Assembly: GCA_963826975.1 (NCBI GenBank)
Contig: CAWGZJ010000005.1
Coordinates: 302,959-366,958 of the forward strand
Length of the DNA: 64,000 nt
Direction of reading: 5' to 3'
From: an uncultured Alphaproteobacteria bacterium
GTDB taxonomy: Bacteria; Pseudomonadota; Alphaproteobacteria; Acetobacterales; Acetobacteraceae
The notes beneath the pieces are model-generated. The model did not search any database and was not told the DNA's origin. It worked only from the letters and a program-made list of their open reading frames with translations. Positions 5,999 to 63,579 of this stretch are shown piece by piece. Every line of letters begins with the position of its first letter. Position 1 is the stretch's first letter. Both the position numbers and the translations under genes were made by a program.

Positions 5999-6099
5999 GA
6001 TAACTATTCGCAATGAATAATCACCTCGGAGACACGGCGAAGAATATCAAGTTGATCACTTGGCTTTTCCGCTCTCTGCCGCCGTGTCTCCGTGGTGAT
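5999..6099. repeat. MITE-like repeat family C, copy 1 (AT-rich arm GATAACTATTNGNAATNAANAATCACC, ~29-bp terminal inverted repeats, core ATCAAG-N-GATCACTTGGCT)
   Basis: Related copies at 15290-15454 (variant), 15613-15715, 29764-29908 and 40147-40256. Confidence 0.75.
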
Positions 6100-15289: not shown

Positions 15290-15454
15290 CCAAGGAAGCA
15301 AGGATTCCACCACAGAGGCACGGAGACACGGAGAAGGAATTGATGCATTTCGCGCGGTGCCTGAACGGACACCAGCGCGAAGCGCCCAAAATTCCTGCTT
15401 CTCCGTGTCTCCGTGCCTCTGTGGTGGAATCCTTGCTTCCTTGGTTTGCTTGCG
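15290..15454. repeat. MITE family C, variant copy with ~45-bp terminal inverted repeats
   Basis: CCAAGGAAGCAAGGATTCCACCACAGAGGCACGGAGACACGGAGAAG ... reverse complement at the other end. Confidence 0.7.
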
Positions 15455-15612: not shown

Positions 15613-15715
15613 TTGATAACTATTTGTAATAAATAATCACCGCAGAGGCACAGAACCCAGGAGAAAAATATCAAGCTGATCACTTGGCTCTTCTACTCCG
15701 TGCCTCCGTGGTGAT
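15613..15715. repeat. MITE family C, copy 3
   Basis: TTGATAACTATTTGTAATAAATAATCACC arm followed by the conserved core and TIR. Confidence 0.7.
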
Positions 15716-29763: not shown

Positions 29764-29908
29764 ATGATAGGAAGCAGAGAATCACCACAGAGGCACAGAG
29801 ACACAGAGACACAGAGACACAGAGACACAGAGCAGAAAGAGCAAGTCGTCAGCTGGATATTCTTCTCTGTGTCTCTGTGTCTCTGTGGTGATTCTTTGTT
29901 TCTATCAT
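29764..29908. repeat. MITE family C, copy 4 (internal CAGAGA microsatellite)
   Basis: TIRs ATGATAGGAAGCAGAGAATCACCACAGAGG / CCTCTGTGGTGATTCTTTGTTTCTATCAT. Confidence 0.7.
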
Positions 29909-32905: not shown

Positions 32906-32982
32906 AGCGTTGGAGCGGGATTCGAACCCGCGACACGATGTTTATCAGACATCTGCTCTACCCATCTGAGCTATCCTTTCCG
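32906..32982 (-). tRNA. tRNA-like sequence with Ile(GAT)-type anticodon loop CTGATAA, good D- and T-arms, but the acceptor stem does not pair as read
   Basis: Minus-strand GGATAGCTCAGATGGGTAGAGCAGATGTCTGATAAACATCGTGTCGCGGGTTCGAATCCCGCTCCAACGC; D-arm GCTC/GAGC and T-arm GCGGG-TTCGAAT-CCCGC are canonical. Confidence 0.4.
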
Positions 32983-33058
32983 AGCAATCGACCGGACTCG
33001 AACCGATATTCCCGGGACAATCCCGGTGCTCTGCCCTTGAGCTACGACCACACCCTTC
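32983..33058 (-). tRNA. Second tandem tRNA-like sequence (canonical D-arm and GGTTCGAGTCC T-arm, atypical anticodon arm, GU-rich acceptor)
   Basis: Minus-strand GTGGTCGTAGCTCAAGGGCAGAGCACCGGGATTGTCCCGGGAATATCGGTTCGAGTCCGGTCGATTGCT. Confidence 0.3.
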
Positions 33059-33755: not shown

Positions 33756-35415
33756 TCAGCTATGCCAACGGAACTCCTGCGGCTTCCGCGCCGAGCCCAG
33801 ACTGAGCTTGACGTTGACCAGCGCCGGCCCCCTGAAGTTCATCGCCTCATCCAGCGCACCGCGCAGGTCCTTCGGGTCCTCGACATAGAACCCCTTGCCG
33901 CCGAACGCCTCCATCATCAGGTCGTAACGAGCGCCCCAGATCAGCGAGTTCGGCCGCATATTCAGCATCGGGTTGTGCGGAATTTCCTCCATCCCCGGCC
34001 CGATGCCGCCGTTGTTGAACACGACGATCTTCGCCGGCATTCCGTAACGACACAGCGTCTCCATCTCCATGCCGGAGAAGCCGATCGCCGAGTCCCCCGA
34101 GACGTGCACCACCGGCCGATCAGGATGCACGACGCACGCGGCGATGACGATACCCAGGCCGACGCCCATCGTGCCATAGCTGCCGGCGTCCAACCGCGAG
34201 CGCGGCAGGAAATTCGGCAACTGAGTGCGGCCGATATCCATCGTGCTGGCGCCCTCGCTGCAAACGATCGCGTTCTTCGGCGTCCAGGCCGCGACATCGC
34301 GCAACAGCCGATAGTAGCCGCCCGGCGCCGAGTTCATCGGCGATCTGCGGCGCGATCAGCGCAGCGTTTTCAGCCGACTTCTTGGTGATCGCCGCGCGCC
34401 ACGGCGTCTCCTTCGGATAGAACCACTGACGGCTTTCCAGCGCCTTGTTCAACTGCCCCACGATCGCCTTGCCGTCACCGCACAGCGCGACCTCGGCCGG
34501 CTTGTTCTGGTGCATCGCTTCCGGTTCGATATCGAGCTGAATGACCCGCACATCCTTGTTGTAGCGCGGCGGCAGGCCGAAATGCATGATCCAGTTGAAG
34601 CGCGCGCCCATCAGGAACACCACATCGGCCTGTTGCAACGCCAGGCTGCGTGACGCGCCGACCGATAGCGGGTGGTCGTCGGGCATCACGCCCTTGCCCA
34701 TGGGCGAGGCCAGGAACGGCACTTGTGTGCGCTCGATGAACGCGCGCACCTCGTCCTCGGCACGCGAGAAGGCCATGCCTTTGCCGATGATCACCAGCGG
34801 CCGCTCGGCCGATTGCAGCACGTCCAGCGCCTGCTCGACGTATTGCGGCATCGTCTGGATGCGCGGCGGCTCCGGGCATTTCGCGACCTGCATCGCCTTG
34901 TCCACGTCACAGCCGCCGGTGATGATGTCGTCCGCGATGTCAAGATAGGTGGCGCCCGGCCGGCCGTAGATCGATTGCCTGACCGCCATCTCGACGTAGA
35001 ACGGGATGCGGTGCACGTGCTCGATGCCGTGCGCCCATTTGCACAGCGGCGTCGCGGCCAGAACCTGGCGCTCTTCCTGGAAGGCGCCCATGCCGTTGCG
35101 GTAGGTTTCCGATGCGCCGCCGATCAACAGCATCGGCCAGCAATTCTGCTGCGCATTCGCCAGGCCAGCCAGACCGTGGATGACGCCCGGACCGGTCACG
35201 ACGATGCACGAGCCCGGGCGCCCCGTCAGGTAGCCGACGGCACCGGCGGCGTACGACGCGGTCTGCTCGTTGCGCATCCCGATATAGGGGAGGCCAACCT
35301 TCTGCGCTGCCTCGGCGAGCGGACCCACCGGGAACCCCACCACGCCGAACATGAATTGCACGCCTTGTTCCTTGAGGCTTTTCGCCAGCAAGTCAGCGCC
35401 TTTGATCTCAGCCAT
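33756..35415 (-). pseudogene. oxc: Oxalyl-CoA decarboxylase (ThDP-dependent), split by a single frameshift near 34330-34390
   Basis: N-terminal 431-aa ORF (34120..35415) and C-terminal 193-aa ORF (33756..34337) together match full-length Oxc; the junction is ...ENAALIAPQIADE / MNSAPGGYYRLL. Confidence 0.75.
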
Positions 35416-39448: not shown

Positions 39449-39757
39449 TCAGAGCACCGAATACTGCATCCGTTCGCGCCGCGTCAGCTTCGGCAACCCC
39501 TGCTCCAGCACCAACGACTTGAAGTGCGCTGTCTGCTGGTGCGCCGCAAACGCCGCCTCATCCTCGAACAGCTCATAGAACAGGAAATGCCCGGGATTCG
39601 CCGCACCACGATGCACCAGAAACAGTTTCACCCTCGGTTCATTGCGCGCCGCTTCGCCCAGCCGCGCGAGGATCCCCGCCACCGCGTCCTCCTCGCCCGC
39701 CTTCGCTTCCCAGATCGCCGAGATCGCGACCCCGCTCGTGTATTGCTGTGACTGCAT
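39449..39757 (-). CDS. ABM-domain putative monooxygenase (YgiN-like)
   Basis: ~100-aa ABM fold sequence. Confidence 0.65.
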   Translation of the reverse strand: MQSQQYTSGVAISAIWEAKAGEEDAVAGILARLGEAARNEPRVKLFLVHRGAANPGHFLFYELFEDEAAFAAHQQTAHFKSLVLEQGLPKLTRRERMQYSVL

Positions 39758-39892
39758 GGTGTCCTCCTGTCGTGCATGACCACGCCACGGACCCTAGTCG
39801 CTATGCGGCGGCTTATGTTTCGGGCAACGCCGAACCAAGCGGTATCGCAGCACGCTTGGCGTCAGGCTGTTCCATCTGGCATACAGCGTCGC

Positions 39893-40114
39893 ATGACCAG
39901 CAGCATCGTCAGACGTTCAACGATCACTTGCCCGCGGTGCGGCACATCGAAGGCCGAGACGATGCCGACCGACGCCTGCCAGTTCTTTTATGATTGCAGC
40001 GGTTGCGGCACGCTGCTGCGCCCGCTTCCTGGCGATTGTTGCGTATTCTGCTCATTCGGCGACATGCCGTGCCCGCCGATCCAGTGCGGCGGCGGCAAGG
40101 GCAGCGCTGCCTGA
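39893..40114 (+). CDS. Small zinc-ribbon protein (CPRCGTSKAE...CSGCGTLLRPLPGDCCVFCSFGDMPCPP)
   Basis: Two CxxC pairs plus a conserved GDCCVFCSFG motif. Confidence 0.45.
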   Translation: MTSSIVRRSTITCPRCGTSKAETMPTDACQFFYDCSGCGTLLRPLPGDCCVFCSFGDMPCPPIQCGGGKGSAA

Positions 40115-40146
40115 TCCACCATTCGCCCGCGGAAATACGTGTCCTC

Positions 40147-40256
40147 GATAACTATTAGCAATAAAGAATCACCACAGAGGCACAGAGACACGGAGAAGAA
40201 CATCAAGTCGATCACTTGGCTTTTCTGCTCCGTGTCTCCGTGTCTCCGTGGTGATT
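40147..40256. repeat. MITE family C, copy 5 (ends in a T-run)
   Basis: GATAACTATTAGCAATAAAGAATCACCACAGAGGCACAGAGACACGGAG...CTCCGTGTCTCCGTGTCTCCGTGGTGATTTTCTG. Confidence 0.75.
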
Positions 40257-40334
40257 TTCTGCTTACGGACATGCGGCCCGGTACCGATTCCGGCAAGCAC
40301 TGCCTGACACCACCCGCGCGCCCGCAGGCGCCCG

Positions 40335-41192
40335 CTAATCCGCCCGGATCAACCCGCGATGGCTCGGCGCGTCGATGAACGCCAGCACCTCGGCGATCAG
40401 CTCATCCTCGCCATACGCCGCCCGCGTCTCCTCCAGCCGCTGCTTGAACACGCCCTCATGGCGGAACAGCATGCGAAACGCCGTATGCAGCCGGCCAACC
40501 TGCGCCTTGTCGAAGCCACGCCGCTTCAACCCGATCACGTTCAACCCGGCCAGCCGCGCGCGGTTGCCGATCACGCTGCCGAACGGGATCACGTCGGCCT
40601 CCACCCCGGAAACCCCGCCGATCATCGCCGCCCGCCCGATGCGCACGAACTGATGGATCGCCGCCGCGCCGCCGATCACCGCGTGGTCGGCGATGCTGAC
40701 ATGCCCGCCCATCACCGCGTTGTTCGCGATGATCACGTGATCGCCCACCTGGCAGTCGTGCGCGACATGCGCCACCGCCATGATCAGGCAATCCGCGCCG
40801 ACGCGGGTGACGCCGCGTCCCGTCACCGTGCCGCGATGGATCGTGCAGTGCTCGCGGATCTGCGTGCGCGCGCCGATCTCGCAACGAGTCGGCTCGCCCT
40901 GGTATTTCAGGTCCTGCGGCTCCAGCCCGACGGTGCAGAATGGGAACAGCACCACGTCGGGTCCGATCACCGTGTGGCCATCCACCACCACATGCGAAAC
41001 CAGGCGCGTCCCATCGTCGATCACCGCGTTGGCCCCGACGCTGCACCACGGCCCAATGCTGACGCCGCTCCCAAGCTCCGCCCCGCGCGCCACGATCGCG
41101 CTCGGATGGATCGAGACCGGCTTCGCCTTCGGGGCAAGCGCTCGTGTTCCAAGCACCGTTGCGGCAAGCACTGGGGTCATTGGGGGTGGCAC
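40335..41192 (-). CDS. lpxA: Acyl-ACP--UDP-N-acetylglucosamine O-acyltransferase
   Basis: Hexapeptide-repeat left-handed beta-helix and LpxA C-terminal domain. Confidence 0.85.
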   Translation of the reverse strand: MPPPMTPVLAATVLGTRALAPKAKPVSIHPSAIVARGAELGSGVSIGPWCSVGANAVIDDGTRLVSHVVVDGHTVIGPDVVLFPFCTVGLEPQDLKYQGEPTRCEIGARTQIREHCTIHRGTVTGRGVTRVGADCLIMAVAHVAHDCQVGDHVIIANNAVMGGHVSIADHAVIGGAAAIHQFVRIGRAAMIGGVSGVEADVIPFGSVIGNRARLAGLNVIGLKRRGFDKAQVGRLHTAFRMLFRHEGVFKQRLEETRAAYGEDELIAEVLAFIDAPSHRGLIRAD

Positions 41193-41384
41193 TCGCCTTG
41201 GTTGTTGCGCTGCGGCACCCTAGGTGGAGGCCCCGGGGTGGCCAACACAATCATTGTTGCTTCGTGTTTCGCCGATCGGCCTGTAACTGTTTGTTTCATA
41301 TAGAATTCCGGCGGAATTGCGGCCGCCCCCCAACCGATCCGGCCCAACCGATCCGGCATGATCCGTGGGAGCGCGCGCGGTGGT

Positions 41385-41891
41385 TCATCCGATCGATGGT
41401 GCGCGATCCATGATCATCGCCGTATAGGTGGCCTCGGCGACCGAGATGCCGTCGACCCGTGCCACCGCCACGAACTTCCAGACATTGCCGCGGTTGCGCT
41501 GCTTGGTGCAGTGGATGCGAAGCTGGTCGCCCGGCACCACCGGGCGGCGGAACTTGGCACCCTCCACCGACATGAAATAAACCACCCGGCCGGCGGCGTC
41601 GGGGCCCAGCGTCTCAACCACCAGGATCGCCGCGGTCTGCGCCATCGCCTCGATGATCAGCACCCCCGGCATCACCGGGTGGTTGGGAAAGTGGCCCTGG
41701 AAGAACAACTCGTTGACCGACACGTTCTTGATGCCGATCGCCGACTGGTTGGTCACCAGGTCCACCACGCGGTCGATCATCAGGAACGGATAGCGATGCG
41801 GAATCGCCTGCAGGATGCGGGCAATGTCCACCACTTCCACCACCGAGCCCGCCGGCGGTGCCAAGGTCGTTGCAATTGCCGATGCGTCCAT
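41385..41891 (-). CDS. fabZ: 3-hydroxyacyl-ACP dehydratase FabZ
   Basis: HRYPFLMIDRV...FFQGHFP...PGVLIIEAMAQ. Confidence 0.9.
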   Translation of the reverse strand: MDASAIATTLAPPAGSVVEVVDIARILQAIPHRYPFLMIDRVVDLVTNQSAIGIKNVSVNELFFQGHFPNHPVMPGVLIIEAMAQTAAILVVETLGPDAAGRVVYFMSVEGAKFRRPVVPGDQLRIHCTKQRNRGNVWKFVAVARVDGISVAEATYTAMIMDRAPSIG

Positions 41892-41896
41892 CGCGG

Positions 41897-43054
41897 TCAG
41901 TCCGTGTCCGTCCTCTTGCTCGCGGCATCCAAGCCGCCAGCATTCCCATCGCCACGTACCTCTTCGGCGCTTACCCCGTCGGCGCGTATCCGGTCGGCGC
42001 GAGACTTATCGCCGGCCGCCGCCTTGCCACCTCCTTTCGCCAGGCGGCGCAAAATTGCCACCTCGCGAAAGAACGCCCAACGGGACTGCGCCGGGCTGCC
42101 GACCACTTCCGTCCCGGCCGCCACGTCCGCCATCACCCCGGCCTGCGCGCCGATCCGCGCCGTGCGGCCGATCCTCAGATGCCCGGTCAGCCCCGCCTGG
42201 GGGCCGACCATCACGTGGTCTTCCAGGATCGTGGAGCCAGACACACCCGCCTGTGAAACGATCACACAGCCCAGACCCAGGCGCGCGTTGTGCCCGATCT
42301 GCACCAGGTTGTCGAGCCGCGAGCCGGCGCCGATCACCGTGTCCTGCAAGGAGCCGCGGTCGATCGTGGAGTTGGCGCCGACCTCGACGTCGTCCTCCAG
42401 GATGACCCGGCAGAGTTGCGGCACGCTGTGGAACCCCTCGCCGGTGATGGCGAACCCGAAGCCCTCCTGGCCAATGCGCGCACCGGGATAGACATAGACC
42501 CGGGCACCCAGCAGCGCGTGGCTGAGGCTGGCGTGCGACCCGATCCGGCAATCCGGGCCAAGCACCACGCCCGGGCCGATCACCGCCAGCCCGCCGATGC
42601 GGCAGCGCGGGCCGATCTCGGCACGCTCGCCGATCACCGCCAGCGGACCGATCTCGGCCGAGGGATCGATGATCGCGTCCGCGCCGATCACCGCCGTCGG
42701 GTGGATGCCGGCGCGAGCCGGCGGCACCGGGTGAAACAGCGCGGCGACCTTGGCCCAGGCAGCGTACGGCTCCGCGGTGACGATCGCCACACCACCGGCG
42801 GGCACGCGCGACGCCATGTCGGGGTGCACGATCACCGCCCCGGCGCGTGTGGCATCAAGCGCCAGCGCGTATTTGCGGTTGTCGAGGAAGCTCACCTGAT
42901 CGGCGGCGGCGGTCCGCAGCGGCGCCACGCCGGCCAGCATCAGCCGCCGTGGCTGCGCCTCGGCTTCCGCGGCATCCGCCACCGCGGCCAGCGTGAACGG
43001 ACCAGCGCGCTGAAAAAATCGTGGATCGCCGACAATCTCCGGCCAGTCCGTCAC
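41897..43054 (-). CDS. lpxD: UDP-3-O-(3-hydroxyacyl)glucosamine N-acyltransferase, with a Gly/Ala/Asp-rich C-terminal extension
   Basis: LpxD N-terminal domain plus hexapeptide repeats. Confidence 0.85.
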   Translation of the reverse strand: MTDWPEIVGDPRFFQRAGPFTLAAVADAAEAEAQPRRLMLAGVAPLRTAAADQVSFLDNRKYALALDATRAGAVIVHPDMASRVPAGGVAIVTAEPYAAWAKVAALFHPVPPARAGIHPTAVIGADAIIDPSAEIGPLAVIGERAEIGPRCRIGGLAVIGPGVVLGPDCRIGSHASLSHALLGARVYVYPGARIGQEGFGFAITGEGFHSVPQLCRVILEDDVEVGANSTIDRGSLQDTVIGAGSRLDNLVQIGHNARLGLGCVIVSQAGVSGSTILEDHVMVGPQAGLTGHLRIGRTARIGAQAGVMADVAAGTEVVGSPAQSRWAFFREVAILRRLAKGGGKAAAGDKSRADRIRADGVSAEEVRGDGNAGGLDAASKRTDTD

Positions 43055-43070
43055 ACTGGCTTCACCGAAT

Positions 43071-43896
43071 TCAGGGCTTCTTCGCCGGCGCGGGCTTCGC
43101 CGGGCTCGCTCCGCCAGCCGGGGCCGCCGCGGCTTGCGGCTTCAACTGCAGGACCGAAACCCCATCCGGCGGGATGGTCACCGAGGGCAGTACAGTGTTC
43201 ATCTCCGTGGCCACCTGGCCCGTGATGTCGAACTCGGGCAAATAGAGCGCGGTCTGCGGCGCATGCAGCACGAGGTTCATCCCGTGGGAGACCGCGACCT
43301 GCTGCACCACGTCGCGCAGCGTGCGCTCGATCTGCGCCAGCGCGTACTGGCCGGCTTCCTGGATGATCCGGTTGCGCTCGGCGAATTTGCGTCGCGACTC
43401 GGCGATCCGGTCCTGCAACTCGCGCTCCTTGGCGCGGATCTGCTCCGCGGTCATCTTGCCGCGGTCATTGGTCAGCGTCTGGCCAAGATCGCGCAACGTG
43501 GTCTGCTCCTTCTGGGCATCCTCGTTCAGCTTCTGGCGCCGTGTGCCCAGTTCCTTGTCAACCGCCTGATACGCGGTGGACCCGCGCATCACGTCTGGCA
43601 CCGAAATAACGCCCATGATCGCGGCCGGCGGGAAGTTGCCCTTCGGGATTTGCGGCACCACGGCGGGCGGCGGCAGCACCAACTGCAGTTGCTGCGGCGT
43701 GATCGCCGATTGATCCGCCTCCGCCCCCGCCCCACCCTCGACACCCGCGGCCGGGGCGGGCGCGGACGTTGGAGCGCCGGCGCTCGGTCGCGGCGCCGGG
43801 CGGGCCGCCGGCCGGGACTGTCCGGGGATGAAATAGTCCGGTGTCTGCGCCGGTGCCTGCTGCGCACGGCTCGCGGCAAGCGGAACCAGCAGCATG
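43071..43896 (-). CDS. OmpH/Skp family periplasmic chaperone
   Basis: Signal peptide then a long coiled-coil typical of Skp; positioned between bamA and lpxD. Confidence 0.7.
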
Positions 43897-43919
43897 GCGG
43901 CTATGGCGACCGTCGTCGC

Positions 43920-43990
43920 AAGCCAGGGATGGGCAAGCCAAGGATGGGCAAGCCAGGGATGGGCACGGCAGGGATGGGCAAGGCAGGAAT
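43920..43990. repeat. 15-bp tandem repeat (GCCAGGGATGGGCAA, about 4.5 units) in the bamA-skp spacer
   Basis: Read directly; it would encode an AHPWL repeat if the upstream Met of the ORF were used. Confidence 0.8.
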
Positions 43991-43997
43991 GGCGCAC

Positions 43998-46670
43998 TTA
44001 GAACCTCGTACCAAAACCAAAGCGGAATATCTGCGTCTGATCGCCCGGCTGCTTCACGACGAAGGGCGTCAGGTCGATGTTGATCAGCCCAAACGGCGTC
44101 TTCCACGAGACGCCGACGCCAACGCCGATACGCGGGGTCGATGATGCCAGGATCGGCGGGCAGCCGCCGGCCTCGCCGGGGCAGGAGTTGTGCTCGAAAT
44201 TCGCCTGGGTCAGTCCGCCGACATCAACGAACGTGCGCCCGCTCAGCCCCAGATCGGGCGACACCGGCAGCGGGAAGCGCAGCTCGGCGGTTCCCGTCCA
44301 GATGAACCGTCCGCCAAGTGGATCGCCCTGCGTATCGTGCGGGCCGGCGCCACCCTCTTCGAAGCCGCGCAGGTTGTCGCCGCCAAGGTAGAACCGGTCG
44401 ATCAACTGCTCCTGCTGGCCTAGGTTGAACAAGTAGCCGGCACCGGCGGACAACGCCAACACCCAGGCGGGATCGCCCATCAGCCGCTCCAGCGGGACGT
44501 AATACGACACGTCTGCATGGGTGCGAACGAACTGGGCATTGCCGCCAAGTCCGGCGAAGTCGGTGCCGAGCCGGTACACGCCCCCGCTGTGCGGATCGAC
44601 CTTGCTGTCCCGATAGTCCAGCGCCAATTGCTGGCTGACCTGCGACAGCAACGTGTAGCCCTGTGCATCAACGATGAAGATGCTGGCACCGGGCTGGACA
44701 TTGGAGACCGTGCGTCCGACCAGCGAATAGCTCCAGGTCTGGCTTAGGTTCTCATTGTAATTGTAACCCATCGTCAGGGCGAAACCAACACGCTTCTCGT
44801 CGTACGGCTCGGTGCCGAGAAAGTTCGTCTGCACCAGGAAAACGTTCGCGCCGGCCACCAGGTTGCGGTCAAGGAAATACGGATCGGTGACAGAGATGTT
44901 GATCGAACTGTCATGCTGGGCCAGCACGCCATTGATCCCGGCGTTGACCCCGGTGCCGATGAAATTGCTCTCGGTAATGCCGGCATCGACCAACGCCCCG
45001 GCGTCGGTCGCGTAGCCGCCACCAAGCGTGACCGACCCGGTCGACTTCTCCGTCACCGTGGTGGTCAGGACCGTCTTGTCGGGCGCCGATCCCGGAGTCG
45101 GTTCTACCGTCACGGTGTTGAAGTAGCCCAGATCCTGCAGGCGCTGACGACTGCGGCGCACCGCCTCGGCGTTGAACGCATCGCCTTCGGCCACACGGAA
45201 CTCACGGCGGATGACCTTGTCCTTGGTTCGCACGTTGCCGACAATGTCGATGCGCTCGACATACCCGCGCGGTCCCTCGTCGACATTGAAAGCCAGGTCG
45301 ATGATGTGCTTGTCGGTATGTCGGGTGACGTCGGGTTTGACGTCAACAAAGGAGTAGCCGCGCGATCGCACGTCCTCGTCGATCTTGTCCGCCGTGCGCC
45401 CCACCGCGTCGCCGTCGTACCAGTCGCCCTCGTCAAGCTGCAGGTCCTTGCGCAGCGACTCGCCATCCAGGCCACGCAGGTGCGAGTTGATGGTGATTTT
45501 CCCGACCCGGTAGCGCTCGCCCTCGTTCAGGCTGAACGTCAGGAACAACGCCGACCGATCGGGCGACAGTTCGGTCGTCGAGTCGGTAACCTCGACGTCG
45601 GCATAGCCGTTCTTCAGGTAAAACCGGCGCAGCAACTCCTTGTCGAAGTTGATCCGGGCCGGGTCATATTCGTCGGCTGTCGACAGGAACCGCCACCAGG
45701 TGTGTTGGCGCGTGTTGATCACATCGTCCAGCCGGCCCTCGCTGAACGCATGGTTCCCGACAAACCCGATATGGGCGATGAACGCACTCGGCCCGTCGGC
45801 GATCTGGAACACCGCATCGACGCGATTCTCGCTCAGGCGGATGATTTGCGGCGTCACCACCGTCGCGAACCGCCCGCGCTTGGCGTAGGCCGCCAGAATC
45901 CGCTGCCGGTCGGCCTCGGCGGCGGCCGGCGTGAACACCGCGCGCGGACGCAACTGCACCACATCTTTCAGTTGGTCGTCGCTCTCCAGGTGGTTGCCCT
46001 CGAAGGCAACCCGGTTGACCAGCGGGTTCTCCACCACCTTCACCACCAGCGTGTCGCCCTGGCGCGTCAGGTCCACGTCCTGGAACAGCCCGGTCGCATA
46101 CAGGGTCTTCAGGCTGCGATCGATGCGTGCGGGATCGAACGGGTCGCCGGGCCGCACCAGCATGTAGGACAGGATGGTCCCGCCCTCGATTCGCTGGTTG
46201 CCCTGGATTTGGATCGACTGGATCGTGCCGGGCGCCGCAATCGGCGTAACCGGTCCGGCCGCCGGGGCCGCGGCACGCGCACCGGCGCCTGGGGTGCCAG
46301 GGGCACGGGAACCGGTGCCAGGGGAACCGGTCACTGGGGAACCGGTCACTGGGGAACCGGTCACTGGGGCAGCCGCGGCAGGGCCACCGGCGCCGGGCGC
46401 TGCCGCCGGCAGTTGCGGCACCGGCGTCGCACGCGGCGGCACCTGGACGGTCGGCAGGGGCGGCGCGCTTTGAGCGGCGGCCGGGTTGGCCTGCAACGCA
46501 AGCGGCACCAACGCGAGGGCCAGCAGCACGGCGCGGATGCAAAGCAAAAACCAAACCCCCCAATCTATCCCCAGACCCCGAGCTCGCGCCGCCTCGGTCA
46601 GGGCGGGGTTTGTCAGGCGAGCGGACCATAGCCGCGCTCGGCGCGCGATGCTAGCCGAGGGAGTTGTCAC
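43998..46670 (-). CDS. bamA: Outer membrane protein assembly factor BamA (POTRA domains + Omp85 barrel); N-terminal Pro/Ala-rich linker with VTGSP x3
   Basis: POTRA repeats, C-terminal barrel ending in the aromatic terminal motif (RF); true start within 46480-46670 is uncertain. Confidence 0.85.
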   Translation of the reverse strand: MTTPSASIARRARLWSARLTNPALTEAARARGLGIDWGVWFLLCIRAVLLALALVPLALQANPAAAQSAPPLPTVQVPPRATPVPQLPAAAPGAGGPAAAAPVTGSPVTGSPVTGSPGTGSRAPGTPGAGARAAAPAAGPVTPIAAPGTIQSIQIQGNQRIEGGTILSYMLVRPGDPFDPARIDRSLKTLYATGLFQDVDLTRQGDTLVVKVVENPLVNRVAFEGNHLESDDQLKDVVQLRPRAVFTPAAAEADRQRILAAYAKRGRFATVVTPQIIRLSENRVDAVFQIADGPSAFIAHIGFVGNHAFSEGRLDDVINTRQHTWWRFLSTADEYDPARINFDKELLRRFYLKNGYADVEVTDSTTELSPDRSALFLTFSLNEGERYRVGKITINSHLRGLDGESLRKDLQLDEGDWYDGDAVGRTADKIDEDVRSRGYSFVDVKPDVTRHTDKHIIDLAFNVDEGPRGYVERIDIVGNVRTKDKVIRREFRVAEGDAFNAEAVRRSRQRLQDLGYFNTVTVEPTPGSAPDKTVLTTTVTEKSTGSVTLGGGYATDAGALVDAGITESNFIGTGVNAGINGVLAQHDSSINISVTDPYFLDRNLVAGANVFLVQTNFLGTEPYDEKRVGFALTMGYNYNENLSQTWSYSLVGRTVSNVQPGASIFIVDAQGYTLLSQVSQQLALDYRDSKVDPHSGGVYRLGTDFAGLGGNAQFVRTHADVSYYVPLERLMGDPAWVLALSAGAGYLFNLGQQEQLIDRFYLGGDNLRGFEEGGAGPHDTQGDPLGGRFIWTGTAELRFPLPVSPDLGLSGRTFVDVGGLTQANFEHNSCPGEAGGCPPILASSTPRIGVGVGVSWKTPFGLINIDLTPFVVKQPGDQTQIFRFGFGTRF

Positions 46671-46725
46671 AGATTGCTACTGGCGCCGTTACGGCCGAAA
46701 CGGCACCCGCCCGGGCGTTTACGCT

Positions 46726-46790
46726 GGTAAAAGCGGGCGTTTACGCTGATAAAGGGGGCGTTTACGCTGGTAAAAGCCGGCTGGCCCGGG
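46726..46790. repeat. 22-bp tandem repeat (GGGCGTTTACGCTGGTAAAAGC x3) in the divergent bamA/lpxI intergenic region
   Basis: Read directly. Confidence 0.75.
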
Positions 46791-47154
46791 TCAAAGCAGG
46801 CCGGCCCGTGAGAAAAAGCCCGCCGGCGCTTCGGCGTAATCGCGCCGCGCCGCGCCTACTGGGCCCGATGCAGACGCGCCGGAGTCGCATTGGTTTCGCG
46901 CTCCCCGCCCTCGGCCTCGCAAATCCTCAGCACTTGGCATATTGCCAGGTAGGTTCGCGCCAGCCCGAGGCGCGCCGCGTCGTCTGCCAGCAGCAGAAGG
47001 CATTCAATAATCCCGTCGGCCGCCGAGCCGACATGGGGGCCGACATGGGGGCCGACATTGGGAAGGGGGGCGTCCCTGGTCATGCAGCGCTTGTCCTTGG
47101 CGTGAAGCGACGAATGTCAGCTTCCGGCCATCATGCGCCCGCGATGGTTGCCGC

Positions 47155-48045
47155 GTGGTTGCCGTGACGCCGGGGGGAAACCGCGCCGATCCGGGGACGC
47201 GGCCGGCGCTGGGCATTCTCGCCGGCGGCGGACGGTTGCCTGGCAGGGTCGCCGCCGCCGCCGCCGCTGCGGGCCGCCCGGTGTTCATGGTCGGCCTCGA
47301 CGGCTTCGCCGACCCTCCCGTGCTGGCGCCCTGGCCGCACGAGGTGATCCGAATCGGCGCCGCCGGACGGATCCTGGCGGCGTTGCGCGCCAATCGGTGC
47401 GCCGACCTCGTGCTGATCGGCACGGTGCGGCGGCCATCCCTGCTTGCCCTCCGCCCGGATGCCGAAGGCGCCCGCATCCTGGCGCGAATTGGCCGCGCCG
47501 CGTTCGCCGGGGACGACGGGCTGCTCGCCGCGGTCATCAAGGTGCTCGGCGAGGAAGGCTTCCGCGTCGTCGGCGCGCACGAAGTTATCAACGAGGCGCT
47601 CGCCCCCTCCGGCGTGTTGGGCGCCGTGACGCCGGACGCCCAGGCGATGGCCGACATCGATCGCGGGATCGCCGTGGCACGCGCGCTGGGCGCGGTGGAT
47701 GTCGGTCAGGGCTGCGTGGTGCAGCAGGGCCTGGTCCTGGCGGTCGAGGCGGCCGAGGGCACCGACGCCATGCTCGCGCGCTGTGCCGCGTTGGCGCGAT
47801 CGGGGCCGGGCGGCGTGCTGGTCAAGCTGGTCAAGCCGGCGCAGGACCGCCGCGCCGACCTGCCGACCATCGGCCCGGGATCAGTTGGCGCCGCCGCCGC
47901 CGCCGGATTGCGCGGGATCGCCTTCGCCGCCGGGGCCACATTGCTGGCCGATCGCGCGGCGGCGATCGACGCGGCGGACAGGGCAGGCCTGTTTCTGCTA
48001 GGCCTGGATCCGGCGACCATATCCGAAGGAGGAGAACACACATGA
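47155..48045 (+). CDS. lpxI: UDP-2,3-diacylglucosamine pyrophosphatase LpxI (DUF1009)
   Basis: [11 protein letters not shown]...VFMVGL...[27 protein letters not shown]...[19 protein letters not shown] conserved LpxI blocks. Confidence 0.75.
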
Positions 48046-48428
48046 GCAGCTTTCTGCACACCATGATTCGCGTCGGCGATCTGCAGCGCAGCGTCGATTT
48101 CTACACCAAGGCGTTCGGCATGAAGGAGCTGCGCCGGCGCGACGTGCCGGACGGCAAATACACCCTGGCGTTCGTCGGCTACGGCGACGAGGACAGCAAC
48201 ACCGCGATCGAGCTGACCTACAACTACGGCGTGGAAAAATACGAGATGGGCAGCGCGTTCGGCCATCTGGCGGTTGGCGTACCGGACGTGGCAGCAGCGT
48301 GCCAGATTGCCGCGAGTGCCGGCGGCACGATCACCCGCCCGGCCGGCCCGGTAAAGTTCGGCACCACCATCATCGCCTTCGTGAAGGACCCGGACGGCTA
48401 CCTGATAGAACTGGTCCAGCGCCACTGA
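48042..48428 (+). CDS. gloA: Lactoylglutathione lyase (glyoxalase I)
   Basis: GGAGGAG RBS 7 nt upstream; [16 protein letters not shown]...ELTYNYG...GHLA glyoxalase I signature. Confidence 0.85.
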
Positions 48429-48850
48429 CATCCCCAACGTTCACCTCTCCCGCTCTTCGCGGGAGGTCGAGGCGCGAAGCGACGAGGGTGAGGGCGCGGA
48501 GACCAATATGTCCCACCGCGGCCGCGCCGGTTCGTCAAGGACCCGGACGGCTACCTGATCGAGCTGGTCCAGCGCCACTGACATCCCCAATGTTCACCTC
48601 TCCCGCTCTTCGCGGGAGAGGTCGAGGCGCGAAGCGACGAGGGCGAGGGCGCGGAGACCAATATGTCCCACCGCGGCCGCGCCGGTTCGTCAAGGACCCG
48701 GACGGCTACCTGATCGAACTGGTCCAGCGCCACTGACATCCCCAATGTTCACCTCTCCCGCTCTTCGCGGGAGAGGTCGAGGCGCGAAGCGACGAGGGTG
48801 AGGGCGCGGAGACCAATATGTCCCACCGCGGCCGCGCCGGCCGCCAGGTC
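48421..48850. repeat. Tandem ~153-bp duplication (2.8 units) made of the last 57 bp of gloA plus a family-A repeat element
   Basis: Units start at 48421, 48582 and 48735 and each contains ...GTCAAGGACCCGGACGGCTACCTGATCGAGCTGGTCCAGCGCCACTGA. Confidence 0.85.
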
Positions 48851-49111
48851 ACCCCATTCAACGAAGCCAATCGCCGTTGATCCAGACTAAGGCAGCACCT
48901 TCGCACCGGTATCAGCCTGCCACCATGTGTCTCACCAATCTGATTGCAACCTCGGATCAGCCTGTAGCGCGCCGCACCAACGATCCGGTAGCGCCACGGG
49001 CGACGGCGCGACCGCAGTCGCCACGCGAGGTGCGGACGTTTCTTCCCCGTGTCTCTATAATAAACGTTGCGTGTTCGCGAACCGTCCGCGATTCGCAATG
49101 GGGTGATAGAC

Positions 49112-49678
49112 ATGGACGTGGTCGAACTGTCCCGCCTGCAATTCGGCCTAACGGCGATGTACCACTTCCTCTTCGTCCCCCTGGCCCTAGGCCTAGCCAT
49201 CCTGCTCGCCATCATGGAGAGCATCTACGTCACCACCGGCCGCACCATCTGGCGCGACATCACCAAATTCTGGGGCCTGCTGTTCGGCATCAACTTCGCC
49301 ATGGGCGTCGCCACCGGCCTGACCATGGAATTCGAGTTCGGCACCAACTGGGCCTACTACGCGCACTACGTGGGCGACATCTTCGGCGCCCCCCTGGCGA
49401 TCGAGGGCCTGATGGCCTTCTTCCTGGAAGCCAGCTTCATCGGCCTGTCCTTCTTCGGCTGGAACCGGATGACCCGCGTGCAGCACCTGATCGCCACCTG
49501 CCTGATGGCGATCGGCACCAACCTCTCGGCCCTGTGGATCCTGATCGCCAATGGCTGGATGCAGAACCCGGTCGGCGCGCGGTTCAACATCGCCACCATG
49601 CGCATGGAGGTCACCGACTTCTTCGCCGTCCTGGAGATCAGTTTCCCAGGCTTACAAGTCGAACGGGTAAGGAGGTAG
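49112..49678 (+). pseudogene. cydA: Cytochrome bd ubiquinol oxidase subunit I (CydA), N-terminal ~185 aa only; truncated at ~49640 where sequence composition changes
   Basis: [27 protein letters not shown]...GWNRMT...[10 protein letters not shown] matches the CydA N-terminus; full CydA is ~450-520 aa and no cydB follows. Confidence 0.7.
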
Positions 49679-53536: not shown

Positions 53537-56500
53537 ATGCGATTCTCGCATTTCTTCATCGAGCGGCCGATCTTCGCCGCGGTTCTGTCGATCGTCATCA
53601 CCATCGCCGGCGCGCTGGTCCAGCGGGCGCTGCCGATCTCGGAATATCCCGATATCGCGCCGCCCACGGTCAACATCCGCGCCAACTATCCCGGCGCCTC
53701 CGCCCAGGTGCTCGCCGAAACCGTGGCGACGCCGATCGAGCAGCAGGTGAACGGCGTCGACGACATGCTGTACATCACCAGCCAGTCGGTCGGCGACGGC
53801 ACGCTGTCGATCGACGTGGTGTTCAAGCCCGGCACCGATATCGACATCGCGCAAGTGCTGGTGCAGAATCGGGTCTCCGTCGCCACGCCGCGACTGCCGG
53901 CTGAAGTGCAGCAGCTCGGCATCACGGTGCGCAAGGCCTCGCCCGACCTGATGATGGTCGTGCACATGATTTCGCGGGATGGCTCGCGCGACCAGCAATA
54001 CATCTCGAACTATGCAACGCTCTACATCAAGGATGCGCTGGCGCGGGTCGATGGCGTGGGCGACGTCAATGTCTTCGGCGCCCGCGATTATTCGATGCGC
54101 GTATGGCTCGATCCCGCCAAGGTAGCGGCGCGCGGGCTGACCGCTGGCGACGTGGTGAACGCGCTGCGCGCCGCAAACCTTCAGGTCGCCGCGGGCGCGA
54201 TCAACCAGCCGCCGGCGACCTCGCCGGGCGCGTTCCAGATATCGGTGCAGACGCTGGGCCGGCTGCGCGATGTCGAGCAGTTCGGCGACATCGTGGTGCG
54301 CGCCGATCCGGGCACCGGGTTCGTGCGCATCCGCGACATCGCCCGGGTCGAACTCGGCGCCCAGGACTACACGGTCAACGCCTATCTCAACAAAGCCGTG
54401 GCAACCGCCATCGTGATCTATCAGCGCCCAGGCTCCAACGCGCTCTCTACCGCGGCCGCGATCAAACAGGCGATGGCGGAGGCCAAGCGGAATTTCCCGC
54501 CCGGCCTCGATTATTCGATCGTCTACAATCCGACCGAGTTCATCCAGCAATCCGTCAATGAGGTCGTGCGCACCCTGTTCATCGCAATCGGCCTCGTTGT
54601 CTGCGTCGTGATCCTGTTCCTGCAAACCTGGCGCGCCGCGATCATTCCGGTGGTGGCCATTCCGGTGTCGCTGATCGGCTGCTTCCTGGTCATGGGGATG
54701 GTCGGAATCGGCTTCAACACCCTGTCGCTGTTCGGCCTGGTGCTGGCGATCGGCATCGTGGTGGACGACGCGATCGTCGTGGTCGAGAACGTCGAGCGCT
54801 ATCATCCGCGAGGGCATGACGCCGAAGGACGCCGCGCATGAGACGATGGACGAGGTCGGCAGCGCGCTGATCGCCATCGCCCTGGTGCTGTGCGCGGTGT
54901 TCATCCCGACCGCTTTCATCAGCGGATTGCAGGGCTCGTTCTACCGCCAGTTCGCCATCACCATCGCCGCGCGCGACGGTGATCTCCGCCATGGTGTCGC
55001 TGACCCTGTCGCCGGCGCTGGCGGCGCTGCTGTTGAAACCGCACGACGCGGCGCCAAAGCCGACACTGATGCATCGCCTGGCCACGCCGCTGCGTGGATT
55101 CTTCGCCGGTTTCAACTGGGCGTTCGACCGCGTGTCGCTGGGCTATGGCCGGCTGGTCGGCCGGCTGGTGCGGATCGGCGCCATCGTGCTGGTGGTCTAC
55201 GCGGCGCTGATCTATGCCGCCTACAATCGGCTGGCCGCGACGCCCACCGGACTTATCCCGCAGCTCGACCGCGGCTATCTGATCGCCGCGTTCCAGCTTC
55301 CGCCGGGCGCCTCGCTCGCGCGCACCGACGCAGTGATCCGCCGGGCGTCCGAGATCATTCTGCAACGACCGGGCGTGCAGAACTCCGTCGCATTCACCGG
55401 ATTTGACGGCGCGACCTTCACCAACGCGCCCAACGCCGGCGTGATCTTCGTGCCGTTGAGCCCGTTCGAGGAACGCGTGTCGCGCGGCCTGACTGCGCCG
55501 CGCATCCTCGCCGATTTGCGCCAGCAGCTAGCCCAGATCGACGACGCCTTCGCCTTCGTGCTCGAGCCGCCCTCGGTTCCCGGCATCGGCACCGGCGGCG
55601 GGCTGAAGCTGTACGTCCAGGACCGCACCGGGCAGGGCTTGCCCGCGCTGGAGCAGGCTACCTGGATCGTTGCCGGCTCGGCGGCGCAGACCCCTGGCTT
55701 CACCCAGGCCTTCACCCTGTTCAACACGCATACGCCGCAGATCTACGCCGATATCGACCGCACCAAGTCGGAGTTGTTGCAGGTGCCGATCGGGCGCGTG
55801 TTCGAAGCGCTGTCGGTCTACATGGGGTCGTCCTACATCAACGACTTCAACCTGGCCGGACGCACCTATCAGGTGATGGCGCAGGCCGACAACCCGTACC
55901 GGCTGACCCTGCGCGACGTCGAAAACCTGAAGACGCGCAACGCCGGCGGCGACATGGTGCCGATCGGTGCGGTGGCGACATTCCGTGACACGACCGGACC
56001 GTTCCGCGTGCCGCGCTACAACCTCTATCCGGCGGCCGAGGTGCAGCTTGGCCTGGCGCGCGGCTTTTCCACCGGCCAGGCGATCGCCGCGATCGAGAAG
56101 ATCGCCGCCGAGCGTCTGCCCCCCGGCTTCGGGTTCGAATGGACCGAGATCGCGCTGCAGGAGAAGCTCGCCGGCAACACCGCGCTCTGGCGTTCGGCCT
56201 CGCGGTCGCCTTCGTCTTCCTGCTGCTGGCGGCGCTGTACGAGAGCTGGCTGCTGCCGCTCGCCGTCGTGCTGATCGTGCCCATGTGCATTCTGGCGGCG
56301 ATGCTCGGGGTGAACGCGCGCGGGCTGGACCGCAACATCCTGGTCGAGATCGGGCTGGTGGTGCTGGTCGGACTGGCCGCCAAGAACGCCATTCTGATCG
56401 TGGAATTCGCCAAGCAGGCCGAGAACGAGGGCATGACAAGGTTCGAAGCGGCGGTTGCCGCGGCGCGTACGCGGTTGCGGCCGATCCTGATGACCTCGAT

Positions 56501-56723
56501 GGCGTTCATTCTCGGCGTCGTGCCGCTGGCCGTCGCGGTCGGCGCCGGCGCGGAGATGCGCCAGTCGCTGGGAACCGCGGTGTTCACCGGCATGCTGGGC
56601 GTTACGCTGTTCGGACTGGTATTCACGCCGGTGTTCTACGTGCTGGTGCGGCGGATGGCGTTGCTGTTGCCGCACAAGCGCGCCCACCACACAACGCGAG
56701 CGGACGGTGCCGATCTGGGGTGA
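53537..56723 (+). pseudogene. RND efflux permease (AcrB/MexB-like) interrupted by at least three frameshifts (~54800, ~54970, ~56190)
   Basis: ORFs 53537..54841, 54816..55406, 54979..56274 and 56139..56723 are collinear with a single ~1050-aa RND protein; the junctions fall in GC-rich short repeats. Confidence 0.8.
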
Positions 56724-62079: not shown

Positions 62080-62256
62080 AGCCCGCATTTCTCATACTCT
62101 CGCGGATGCTGGCTTGGTCCTTGCCGCGCCAACAGGTTTTCGCACCTCGCTTACACTCATTGGGCCAATACACCCGGTATTGGCGTCGGCGCGAAAACCC
62201 GTTGGCACGACAATGACCGGCGCCATCATCCCGCAACAGTATGAGAAATGCGGGCT
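62080..62256. repeat. MITE family E copy 2 (inverted relative to copy 1)
   Basis: Lies 17 bp upstream of the uxuA start; its distal end contributes the stop codon of the citrate-synthase-like gene. Confidence 0.8.
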
Positions 62257-63413
62257 ACACGCCAACCGGCGACCCAACATAGGCCGCCGTCGGACGATAC
62301 ATCCGCCCGGTTTTCGCCTGCTCCATCGCCTGCGCCAGCCAGCCCGGCCCGCGCCCCACCGCGAACACCGCGGTGAACGCGTCGCGCGGAAACTCCAGCG
62401 CGTCCAGCAGCAACGCAGCCGCGATCTCCAGGTTCGCCGGCAGCCGACGCCCCGGCTTCACCCGCGCCAGCACCACTTGCAGCCGCCGCTCCACCTCATT
62501 GGCGAACTCCAGCCGGCTCGCCCCCGGACCCAGCCGGCGCAGCGCCGCACGAATCGCGGCCGACCGCGGATCGTTCCCGTCAGGGAACAGCCGATGCCCG
62601 AATCCCATCAGCCGTTCGCCGGCCACCAGCTTCCGTTCCAGCCACGCATCAAGGTCCTCAACCCAAGCCGCCTCATCCAGCAGATCGAGCGTCGGCCCCG
62701 GCGCCCCGCCATGCAGCGCCCCGGTAAACGCACACCACGCCCCAAGCGCCGCGGACACCAGCGACGCCCGCGTCGACGCCACCACGCGCGCGGTGAAACT
62801 CGACGCATTCAGCCCGCTGTCCATCATTACGGTGTAATACGCATCCAGCGCCGCCACCCGCACCGCATCTTGCGCCGTCCCGTGCGTCATGCGCAGCACA
62901 TCCGCCGCAGTGCCCAACGACGCATCCGGCGCCACCGGCGCATCCCCCCGCCGCGCGCGGATCAGCGCCGGCACGCCCACACTCAACGCGCCGATGATCG
63001 CCGCCGGCGTGCTGTCATCCGCCAGCTCGGCCAGGCAACGCCGCACCGCCGCGTCCATCGGTCGCCGCGCCGCCCCGTCCAGCCACAACGGCAGCGCGGC
63101 AAACGCCGCCACCCTGGCCGCACCCAGCGCATCGCGCACGCCCGTGCGCGTCAGCCCGTCACCGGCAAATCCCTCCCACAGCAGCGCGATGGTGCCCTCA
63201 TAGCCATAATCCACCACCAGGTCCGGCACCGCGACGCCACGCATCCACAGCATGTTGCGCTTCGGATCGGCGGTGCTCAGCACCGTCTCCGCCGCAACGA
63301 CCCCTTCCAGCCCCGGCTGCATCCCGCCTCTCCCCCGTCGCGCCCCGATCATGGCCGCGTCGGCCGCCCGAGTCACACCGTCCGAGTCACACTGGCGGTC
63401 GATCTCGAACATC
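62255..63413 (-). CDS. Citrate synthase family protein (citrate / 2-methylcitrate synthase-like)
   Basis: GFGHRLF..D.R conserved catalytic-region motif and overall family similarity. Confidence 0.65.
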
Positions 63414-63579
63414 CCGGACGATTGACGCGGCCCCAGCCCAAGGTTACACCGCGCGCCCACCCGATCGCCCGCCCAGCGGGTTGCCGGATGCCCAGGTGGC
63501 GGAATTGGTAGACGCGCAGGTTTCAGGTACCTGTGGCCGCAAGGTCGTGGAAGTTCGAGTTTTCTCCTGGGCACCAGAA

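Follow-up and report, generated by a model that had tools for sequence, protein, structure and literature searches.

The 64,000-nt stretch of Acetobacteraceae DNA analysed here, which we call the window, contains a block of five genes, lpxA, fabZ, lpxD, skp and bamA, on the minus strand (40335–46670) and lpxI on the plus strand, and profile matches uphold the identities and strands that the initial annotation had given them. LpxA (acyl-ACP–UDP-GlcNAc O-acyltransferase, 40335–41192; NF003657, 354 bits against a cutoff of 226), FabZ (3-hydroxyacyl-ACP dehydratase, 41385–41891; NF000582, 191 bits against 113) and LpxD (UDP-3-O-acylglucosamine N-acyltransferase, 41897–43054; NF002060, 371 bits against 207, and TIGR01853, 325 against 242.5) all exceed NCBIfam equivalog or subfamily cutoffs. 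The product of the skp/ompH periplasmic chaperone gene (43071–43997) had no NCBIfam match in the profile search and is recognised by its OmpH domain (PF03938, 69 bits against 32.4) and by its location between bamA and lpxD, which is kept in relatives whose homologues carry the source name Skp. BamA (43998–46670) has five POTRA domains and a C-terminal Omp85 barrel in Pfam and scores 696.8 bits against the TIGR03303 cutoff of 297; position 46670 is the end of the longest open reading frame, and the true start is likely to be 46529, as called in a JGI metagenome contig of the same species (L161).

On the plus strand, lpxI (UDP-2,3-diacylglucosamine diphosphatase, 47155–48045) encodes the two-domain architecture of its family over residues 19–281 (Pfam LpxI_N, PF17930, 114 bits; LpxI_C, PF06230, 155 bits). 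Its score against the NCBIfam equivalog NF047836 (257 bits) is below the cutoff of 400; nevertheless, given these domains and the name LpxI that NCBI assigns to close Acetobacteraceae homologues (P0033, P0049, and P0086), the product is a predicted LpxI. An exact-sequence look-up of the 296-aa protein returned no match because the public gene call begins three codons later. The gene for glyoxalase I, gloA (48042–48428, plus strand; TIGR00068, 151 bits against 120), shares 4 bp (ATGA) with the end of lpxI, an overlap that also occurs in the closest relatives having gene calls and which suggests translational coupling of the two. Beyond lpxA lie a gene for a small cysteine-rich GDCCVxC-domain protein (39776–40114, plus strand; NF041374, 99 bits against 40) and one of the ABM family (antibiotic biosynthesis monooxygenase-like, 39449–39757, minus strand; PF03992). 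The window also carries a truncated cydA.

The 485-bp interval between bamA and lpxI is not empty. It contains an ORF of 75 aa (46858–47083, minus strand), divergent from lpxI and supported by gene calls and alignment, which is called as a gene in six relatives or same-species contigs (L161, L165, L166, L168, L170, and L172), has 28 invariant residues across eight sequences, matches no Pfam or NCBIfam family, and was found by tblastn between lpxA and lpxI in four collinear genomes (L016, L019, L088, and L104). The ORF belongs with lpxI. On the other side, the region upstream of bamA (46530–46660, minus strand) is conserved at the DNA level in relatives of both layouts, blastn homology extending to window positions 46655–46660 in L100, L165, L166, L168 and the collinear L173; it therefore travels with the block, and presumably contains the promoter and 5′ leader of bamA. 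What is left between these two conserved elements (46661–46857) has no homology to any relative and must hold the right-hand breakpoint. Within it are a 22-bp tandem repeat (3.2 copies, 46712–46781) and, serving the 75-aa ORF, a hairpin and T-run that resemble a terminator (46836–46821, minus strand).

Comparison with relatives shows that the layout is unusual for the family and ordinary for one of its branches. About 29 Acetobacteraceae loci with an LpxI at least 68% identical to that of the window are collinear, the family-wide order being dxr-rseP-bamA-skp-lpxD-fabZ-lpxA-(small ORF)-lpxI-gloA; Limobrevibacterium gyesilva (L014), Acidisoma sp. L85 (L018), and many MAGs are examples. They share with the window its genes, an lpxI directly followed by gloA, the small ORF divergent from lpxI and the lack of a nearby lpxB, and differ only in the orientation of the bamA-to-lpxA segment and in its outer flank. 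Among more distant alphaproteobacterial loci none is inverted, all whose upstream flank is long enough are collinear, and in most of these bamA is preceded by dxr-rseP and lpxI followed by lpxB. The bamA–lpxA block is therefore inverted relative to the Acetobacteraceae ancestor, and to this extent the initial annotation was right. The inversion is not, however, peculiar to this genome: the same-species contig L161 has the same layout, matching the window at 99.6% over the 3372 nt that cover bamA, the small ORF, lpxI, and gloA, and at least five further lineages, whose LpxI proteins are 79–86% identical to that of the window, have it complete with an ABM gene following lpxA. These comprise ENA ERZ25039491 contig_5080 (L165), ERZ26871208 contig_21458 (L166), JGI Ga0370491_0000503 (L168, with L169 and L174), Ga0210390_10039337 (L100), and two JGI 3300067032 contigs. 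The window has the order of L165, L166, L168, and L100, in which ABM, lpxA, fabZ, lpxD, skp, bamA and the small ORF point left and lpxI and gloA point right, so a divergent lpxI is, by the criterion that the initial annotation had itself set, the native arrangement of this lineage. ABM orthologues 81–84% identical adjoin lpxA in L165, L166, and L168, and an ABM-family (PF03992) gene follows lpxA in the contig of P0123 as well. DNA homology with the inverted relatives ends, on the left, at the ABM stop codon (39449, by blastn), and the DNA beyond it is different in every inverted genome.

Because the block is opposite to that of most of the family, and because a MITE-like hairpin and a tandem repeat lie near its two ends, one could envision a recent inversion in this genome, in place and promoted by these elements. 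The hairpin (40167–40256, with 34-nt arms that are 88% complementary) begins 79 nt past the lpxA stop and is one of about five copies in the window, the others lying near 6029–6099, 15308–15426, 15615–15710, and 29772–29897. It had been proposed to mark the lpxA-side breakpoint. However, positions 39837–40322 form a 486-bp homology gap in blastn comparisons, that is, a window-specific insert between ABM and lpxA that includes the MITE and the GDCCVxC gene; the latter was found in none of the relatives' loci compared, and by blastn the corresponding site of L165 and of L168 has no MITE. Since the adjacency of ABM and lpxA is kept in all genomes with the inverted layout, the insert came later, inside an existing linkage, and the MITE is not at the breakpoint. 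The tandem repeat on the bamA side does exist, but it is unique to its spot and to this species; it was rejected as a shared scar or regulatory array because, apart from L161, all 173 other loci lack it. Nor do inverted repeats connect the two ends (40140–40330 against 46680–47150): the best cross pair, 32 nt with 72% complementarity, falls in coding sequence and is at chance level, and cross-junction repeats were likewise not above chance in L166, L168, and L173. With at least five diverged lineages sharing the layout at LpxI identities that exclude a single species, and with a four-fold-site GC skew that is not reversed, a recent inversion is very improbable.

Repeats near the junctions, together with several window genes that appear broken, could also point to a chimeric join or a mis-oriented contig. 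Such an artefact is extremely improbable, as L161 independently covers the 5′ end of bamA, the small ORF, lpxI, and gloA, and both junctions, ABM to lpxA and bamA to small ORF, are seen again in four further assemblies that come from separate projects.

The inversion appears to be old, as indicated by block DNA distances of 0.12–0.23 and by the 100% bootstrap support for the clade that holds the inverted-layout genomes. GC skew at four-fold sites, a noisy signal, is −0.135 ± 0.03 in the block and −0.087 and −0.190 in other genes; the block thus has the same sign as its flanks and no signature of a fresh inversion. Co-orientation with replication was considered as a rationale for the layout and set aside: on the lpxI strand GC skew is negative throughout the window but weakly positive in relatives of both layouts, and no consistent pattern emerges.

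Within this clade only L162 and L163 are collinear, and their placement bears on whether the segment changed orientation more than once, either because the L162 lineage re-inverted or because L168 and the window's group inverted independently. Bootstraps conflict between codon positions on one as against several inversions. Concatenated DNA (92%), third positions (91%), and RY coding (100%) nest the two collinear genomes in the inverted group with L168 basal, whereas codon positions 1+2 recover the inverted genomes as monophyletic (81%); all are neighbour-joining trees with simple models over about 6 kb, and L168 sits on a long branch. An MFS gene is orthologous (80–92%) in L168, L162, and L172, and lies beyond ABM in the inverted L168 and between lpxA-GFA and the small ORF in the collinear L162, as expected from a re-inversion whose left breakpoint lay further out. 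No repeats or recombinase that might drive such changes were found, and we consider more than one change of orientation unlikely. The third-position and RY trees, and an MFS gene that moves with the segment, suggest a more specific version, in which a segment of about 7–9 kb would have flipped more than once, always at the same boundaries, one of them upstream of bamA and the other at the small ORF's 3′ end, and with no recognisable repeats; this is decidedly unlikely. A programmed invertible segment found no support, as the boundaries have no inverted repeats and the neighbouring genes scanned include no recombinase or invertase. An IS-mediated inversion was likewise discarded, because an IS (DDE_Tnp_1) occurs in the bamA–small-ORF spacer of L165 only, where the window has its tandem repeat, with no partner at the other end.

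Whether the block turned in place is a separate question. In seven relatives, L172 of this clade among them, the 3 to 10 kb preceding the small ORF, lpxI, and gloA (all that each contig offers) contain no bamA block, so the junction between lpxA and the small ORF breaks often. Alternatively, then, the block may first have been separated from lpxI, and a second rearrangement may later have brought it back the other way round. In keeping with this, the window contains no rseP, dxr, ispE, or TPR gene, and collinear relatives themselves differ in what precedes bamA (rseP, ispE, or a 167-aa ORF). No window ORF matches the upstream flank of L173, the closest collinear genome (DctPQM and the 167-aa ORF), which also differs from the left flank of L168 (LysR and TauD). 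When the flanks of L162 and L168 were extended, they proved to have nothing in common, either between themselves or with those of the window, and a pre-inversion neighbour of bamA was found beside the ABM/MFS end in none of the relatives examined. With rseP and dxr missing from the window and the flank beyond ABM different in every inverted genome, the contention that the block had been inverted in place found no support. Separation and rejoining would nonetheless require more events than one inversion, and the placement of MFS beside the small ORF in L162 and L172 and in the order MFS-ABM-lpxA in L168 is most simply read as one flip from bamA to MFS; the two-step history is thus improbable, and a single flip in place is what we infer from these gene orders.

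We therefore consider it probable that the layout is the normal gene order of one Acetobacteraceae subclade and goes back to an inversion, or to a rearrangement with two breakpoints to the same effect, that is old and fixed. The flipped segment would have been 7–9 kb long and would have comprised the bamA-skp-lpxD-fabZ-lpxA operon together with the region upstream of it and what follows lpxA, namely ABM and, originally, probably also the MFS transporter; the placement of the MFS orthologues in L168, L162, and L172 indeed sets the left breakpoint on the far side of lpxA. The right flank (small ORF leftward, lpxI and gloA rightward, then cydAB to gatCAB) would have served as a stable frame. Convergent transcription of lpxA and the small ORF would have been the ancestral state in the family, with lpxI already under its own divergent promoter, so that both ends of the segment fell between transcription units and no operon was broken; we infer that the flip was neutral. 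Afterwards, bamA would have followed the small ORF, both on one strand and with the terminator-like hairpin between them. The insert with the MITE and the GDCCVxC gene would be a later, lineage-specific addition, as would the 22-bp repeat and the accessory genes to the left of ABM. As to mechanism, neither flanking inverted repeats nor paired IS elements were seen.

The absence of lpxB from the neighbourhood, which the initial annotation had noted beside the inversion, was borne out: tblastn with four confirmed LpxB proteins found no match in the 64 kb. By the account in PMC3087551, lpxI sits between lpxA and lpxB in Alphaproteobacteria, and outside the Acetobacteraceae most loci whose downstream flank is long enough have lpxB after lpxI, whereas no Acetobacteraceae locus does; throughout the family gloA follows lpxI, in the place lpxB has in other alphaproteobacteria. 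The lack of lpxB near lpxI is an Acetobacteraceae-wide trait, independent of the inversion, in which lpxI is paired with gloA and lpxB is located elsewhere.

All genes at the locus belong to well-known families. In E. coli the cluster is rseP-bamA-skp-lpxD-fabZ-lpxA-lpxB-rnhB-dnaE, and LpxH, encoded elsewhere, is used in place of LpxI. The window shares with it the core order from bamA to lpxA and differs in that E. coli has LpxH, lpxB directly after lpxA, and all genes on one strand. The canonical alphaproteobacterial cluster, of the Caulobacter crescentus type, is rseP-bamA-skp-lpxD-fabZ-lpxA-lpxI-lpxB (Metzger and Raetz 2010, as cited in PMC3087551). With this the window has in common the seven gene families from bamA to lpxI and the order and spacing from bamA to lpxA; unlike it, the window has the five-gene block on the strand opposite to lpxI with the 75-aa gene between, gloA and not lpxB after lpxI, and neither rseP nor dxr upstream of bamA. 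Relative to its inverted relatives, the window has the 486-bp insert and the tandem repeat as extras, a truncated cydA, and a different flank beyond ABM.

The orientation of the block is thus a fixed and apparently neutral gene-order variant of one Acetobacteraceae subclade, and its significance is mostly limited to correct annotation. An apparent local inversion beside a MITE can be an old lineage trait to which the MITE came later, and the boundary between lpxA and the small ORF, like the DNA beyond ABM, is a site of recurrent rearrangement and insertion. In Acetobacteraceae, lpxI forms a unit with gloA and the divergent, so far unannotated 75-aa gene and not with lpxA or lpxB, and operon inference from Caulobacter or E. 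coli is therefore not transferable to this family.

Profile searches matched all of the gene calls and strands of the initial annotation at this locus: lpxA (40335-41192), fabZ (41385-41891), lpxD (41897-43054), skp/ompH (43071-43997) and bamA (43998-46670) form a block on the minus strand, and lpxI (47155-48045) lies on the plus strand, followed directly by gloA (48042-48428, plus); the two genes overlap by 4 bp at the gloA ATG and the lpxI stop codon. LpxI contains both Pfam LpxI domains and scores 257 bits as an NCBIfam equivalog, under the strict 400-bit cutoff. The skp and bamA ORFs have in-frame 15-bp tandem repeats in their N-terminal regions (five copies at 43918-43992 in skp, 4.2 copies at 46307-46369 in bamA); the stretch surrounding the bamA repeat aligns with no relative.

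The window falls in the Acetobacteraceae when scanned against GTDB species, each represented by a single genome. We mapped the window proteins onto 174 fetched loci. Of the loci whose LpxI was 68% identical or more, 29 were collinear (bamA, skp, lpxD, fabZ, lpxA, lpxI and gloA on one strand, in most cases preceded by dxr and rseP), seven had lpxI and gloA with the block absent within 3-10 kb, 14 were of insufficient length to classify, and seven were inverted, a count in which the window is included and one contig, fetched repeatedly, appears more than once. The inverted layout was not found among more distant alphaproteobacterial loci, all of which were collinear where there was enough upstream flank. 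Collinear relatives, too, differ in the upstream neighbor of bamA (rseP, ispE or other genes), and in a neighboring clade a TPR-ispE pair lies directly upstream of bamA in two loci (L002 and L023) and downstream of gloA in two others (L003 and L025), a further rearrangement at this cluster.

The protein database contains an LpxI 100% identical to that of the window, encoded on a 3.4-kb JGI metagenome contig of the same species (L161). This contig is 99.6% identical to window positions 45346-48717 and spans the bamA 5′ end, a small ORF, lpxI and gloA in the same arrangement, which excludes an assembly artefact. L161 terminates inside an array at 48378-48840 in which a 155-bp unit, made up of the last 51 nt of gloA and the downstream spacer, is repeated three times in tandem at 95-97% identity; its end is probably an assembly break at this array. 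The shared inverted order runs from a monooxygenase-like (ABM) gene (39449-39757, minus) through lpxA, fabZ, lpxD, skp, bamA and the small ORF, all pointing away from lpxI and gloA. Inverted layouts are present in L165 (a 1.3-Mb contig; LpxI 83% identical), L166 (82%), L168/L169/L174 (83%) and L100 (79%), as well as on two contigs of JGI sample 3300067032 (LpxI 86%, Skp 80%) that we infer to join into one genome. The same clade includes a collinear member (L162/L163/L173; LpxI 85%), in which GFA and an MFS gene separate lpxA from the small ORF, and a member without the block (L172), with the MFS gene, small ORF and lpxI. Because these genomes differ over the block by DNA distances of 0.12-0.23 substitutions per site and their clade has 100% bootstrap support, the arrangement is an old property of the lineage. 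The inversion proposed in the initial annotation is real relative to the family ancestor, as the 29 collinear loci indicate, but it is lineage-wide, and its reading as a recent event in this genome is refuted by relatives with the same divergent layout, the very outcome that the initial annotation had set as its refutation. As to one flip or several, neighbor-joining trees of 6.2 kb have topologies that conflict between codon positions: with positions 1+2 the inverted group is monophyletic (81% bootstrap), and with third positions and RY coding the collinear L162 is nested inside it (91-100%).

The 485-bp interval between bamA and lpxI holds the small ORF (75 aa, 46858-47083, minus), which had been overlooked. 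It is present as a gene call in six related assemblies, its homologues range from 63 to 89 aa, and an alignment of eight sequences has 28 invariant residues, with the core motif G-I-x-x-C-L-x-L-L-A-x-D-A-x-R-L-G-L-x-R-T-x-L-A-I-C-Q-V-x-x-I-C-E-A-E; it has no family match in Pfam or NCBIfam. In Acetobacteraceae it is always divergent from lpxI, which has its own, highly conserved divergent promoter region, and a terminator-like hairpin with a T-run lies 3′ of it (46836-46821). In collinear relatives (e.g., L016, L019, L088 and L104) the small ORF stands between lpxA and lpxI, facing lpxA, which assigns it to the lpxI side.

The absence of lpxB from the window was borne out by a search with four LpxB proteins taken from distant loci and verified with Pfam, none of which had a match anywhere in the 64 kb; rseP, dxr, ispE and TPR queries likewise had no match there. 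In most distant alphaproteobacterial loci with enough downstream flank, lpxB is immediately 3′ of lpxI, and the order in these loci (collinear, lpxB after lpxI) agrees with the published arrangement (PMC3087551). None of the Acetobacteraceae loci examined has lpxB near lpxI, gloA occupying that place, so the missing lpxB is a family-wide trait, separate from the inversion.

Several other features of the window were recorded. Downstream of gloA, cydA (49067-49678) is truncated, matching the 418-position Cyt_bd_oxida_I profile over its positions 1-168 only, and DNA homology with relatives ends at 49633. Relatives have cydA-cydB-cydX (and Uma2) where the window has about 7 kb of other DNA (49634 to ∼56800) with a PEP-CTERM protein gene, an HlyD-like gene and an RND pump, and synteny picks up at ruvX-gatCAB, near 56.9 kb. 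An AcrB-type RND transporter (53537-56723) is broken up into three ORFs that follow on or overlap one another (matching profile positions 1-412, 473-866 and 864-1021), representing either a pseudogene or sequencing frameshifts. A thiamine-pyrophosphate enzyme divided between two overlapping minus-strand ORFs (33756-35415; N and M domains in one, C domain in the other) suggests a frameshift. ARAGORN called a 97-nt tRNA-His (63025-63121) and an 87-nt tRNA-Leu (63490-63576), both overlapping a 439-aa ORF on the minus strand (62255-63574) whose four-fold-site GC skew is extreme, as well as a tRNA of undetermined type at 32982-33051; false positives may be among these calls.

The ends of the inverted segment do not lie where the initial annotation had placed them. 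On the left, homology between the window and inverted relatives begins at the ABM stop codon (39449), continues to about 39836 and picks up again just past the lpxA stop. Because it skips 39837-40322, the GDCCVxC gene in this gap (NF041374 match) and the hairpin "MITE" (40167-40256), which has about five copies in the window, are a window-specific insertion within a conserved ABM-lpxA linkage, and the MITE does not mark the lpxA-side breakpoint. CACAGAG-rich short hairpins of this family lie at 6029-6099, 15308-15426, 15615-15710, 29772-29897 and 40167-40256; a similar-style hairpin with 59-nt arms stands exactly at the MFS/small-ORF junction of the collinear L173 (16270-16458). On the right, conservation in both inverted and collinear relatives extends about 130 bp upstream of bamA (to 46655-46660), and homology starts again within the small ORF, near 46905, which places the junction within 46661-46857. 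L168, L162 and L172 have orthologous MFS transporter genes (80-92% identity), lying beyond ABM on the inverted strand in L168 and between lpxA-GFA and the small ORF in L162. On the simplest account, the flipped segment would have been bamA…lpxA-X-MFS, with the MFS gene lost later in the window lineage. DNA beyond ABM is different in every inverted genome; this end is a variable hotspot, of which the low-GC methyltransferase "accessory patch" is the local version. Neither the left flank of L168 (LysR, TauD) nor the window has anything in common with the bamA-upstream flank of the collinear L173 (DctPQM and a 167-aa ORF). These flanks lend no support to a flip "in place"; the flip relative to the ancestor stands.

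The inverted repeats envisaged between the two ends are absent from the window, as they are from L166, L168 and L173. Tandem repeats on the bamA-distal side are real (22 bp × 3.2, 46712-46781) but species-specific. In L165, an IS with a DDE_Tnp_1 transposase (8362-9461) occupies the bamA/small-ORF spacer, the interval in which the window has its 22-bp tandem repeat; it is found there in L165 only and lacks a partner element. None of these features reveals the molecular cause. At four-fold sites, the block has a GC skew of −0.135 ± 0.03 (a noisy measure), with the same sign as that of neighboring genes, as would be expected if the block had long been in its present orientation. Replication orientation offered no consistently supported rationale. 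GC skew of the lpxI strand is negative over the whole window, 1-64000 (−0.05 to −0.07), as opposed to +0.01 to +0.04 in the equivalent flanks of relatives, and this genome may therefore carry the larger region in the opposite orientation relative to replication.

Both junctions fall between transcription units, one at the convergent lpxA and small-ORF terminators and the other upstream of the bamA leader. As a result of the flip, bamA is preceded on its own strand by the small ORF, and the terminator-like hairpin separates the two. We infer that the flip was close to neutral. The inversion is an old, lineage-wide and ordinary gene-order variant.
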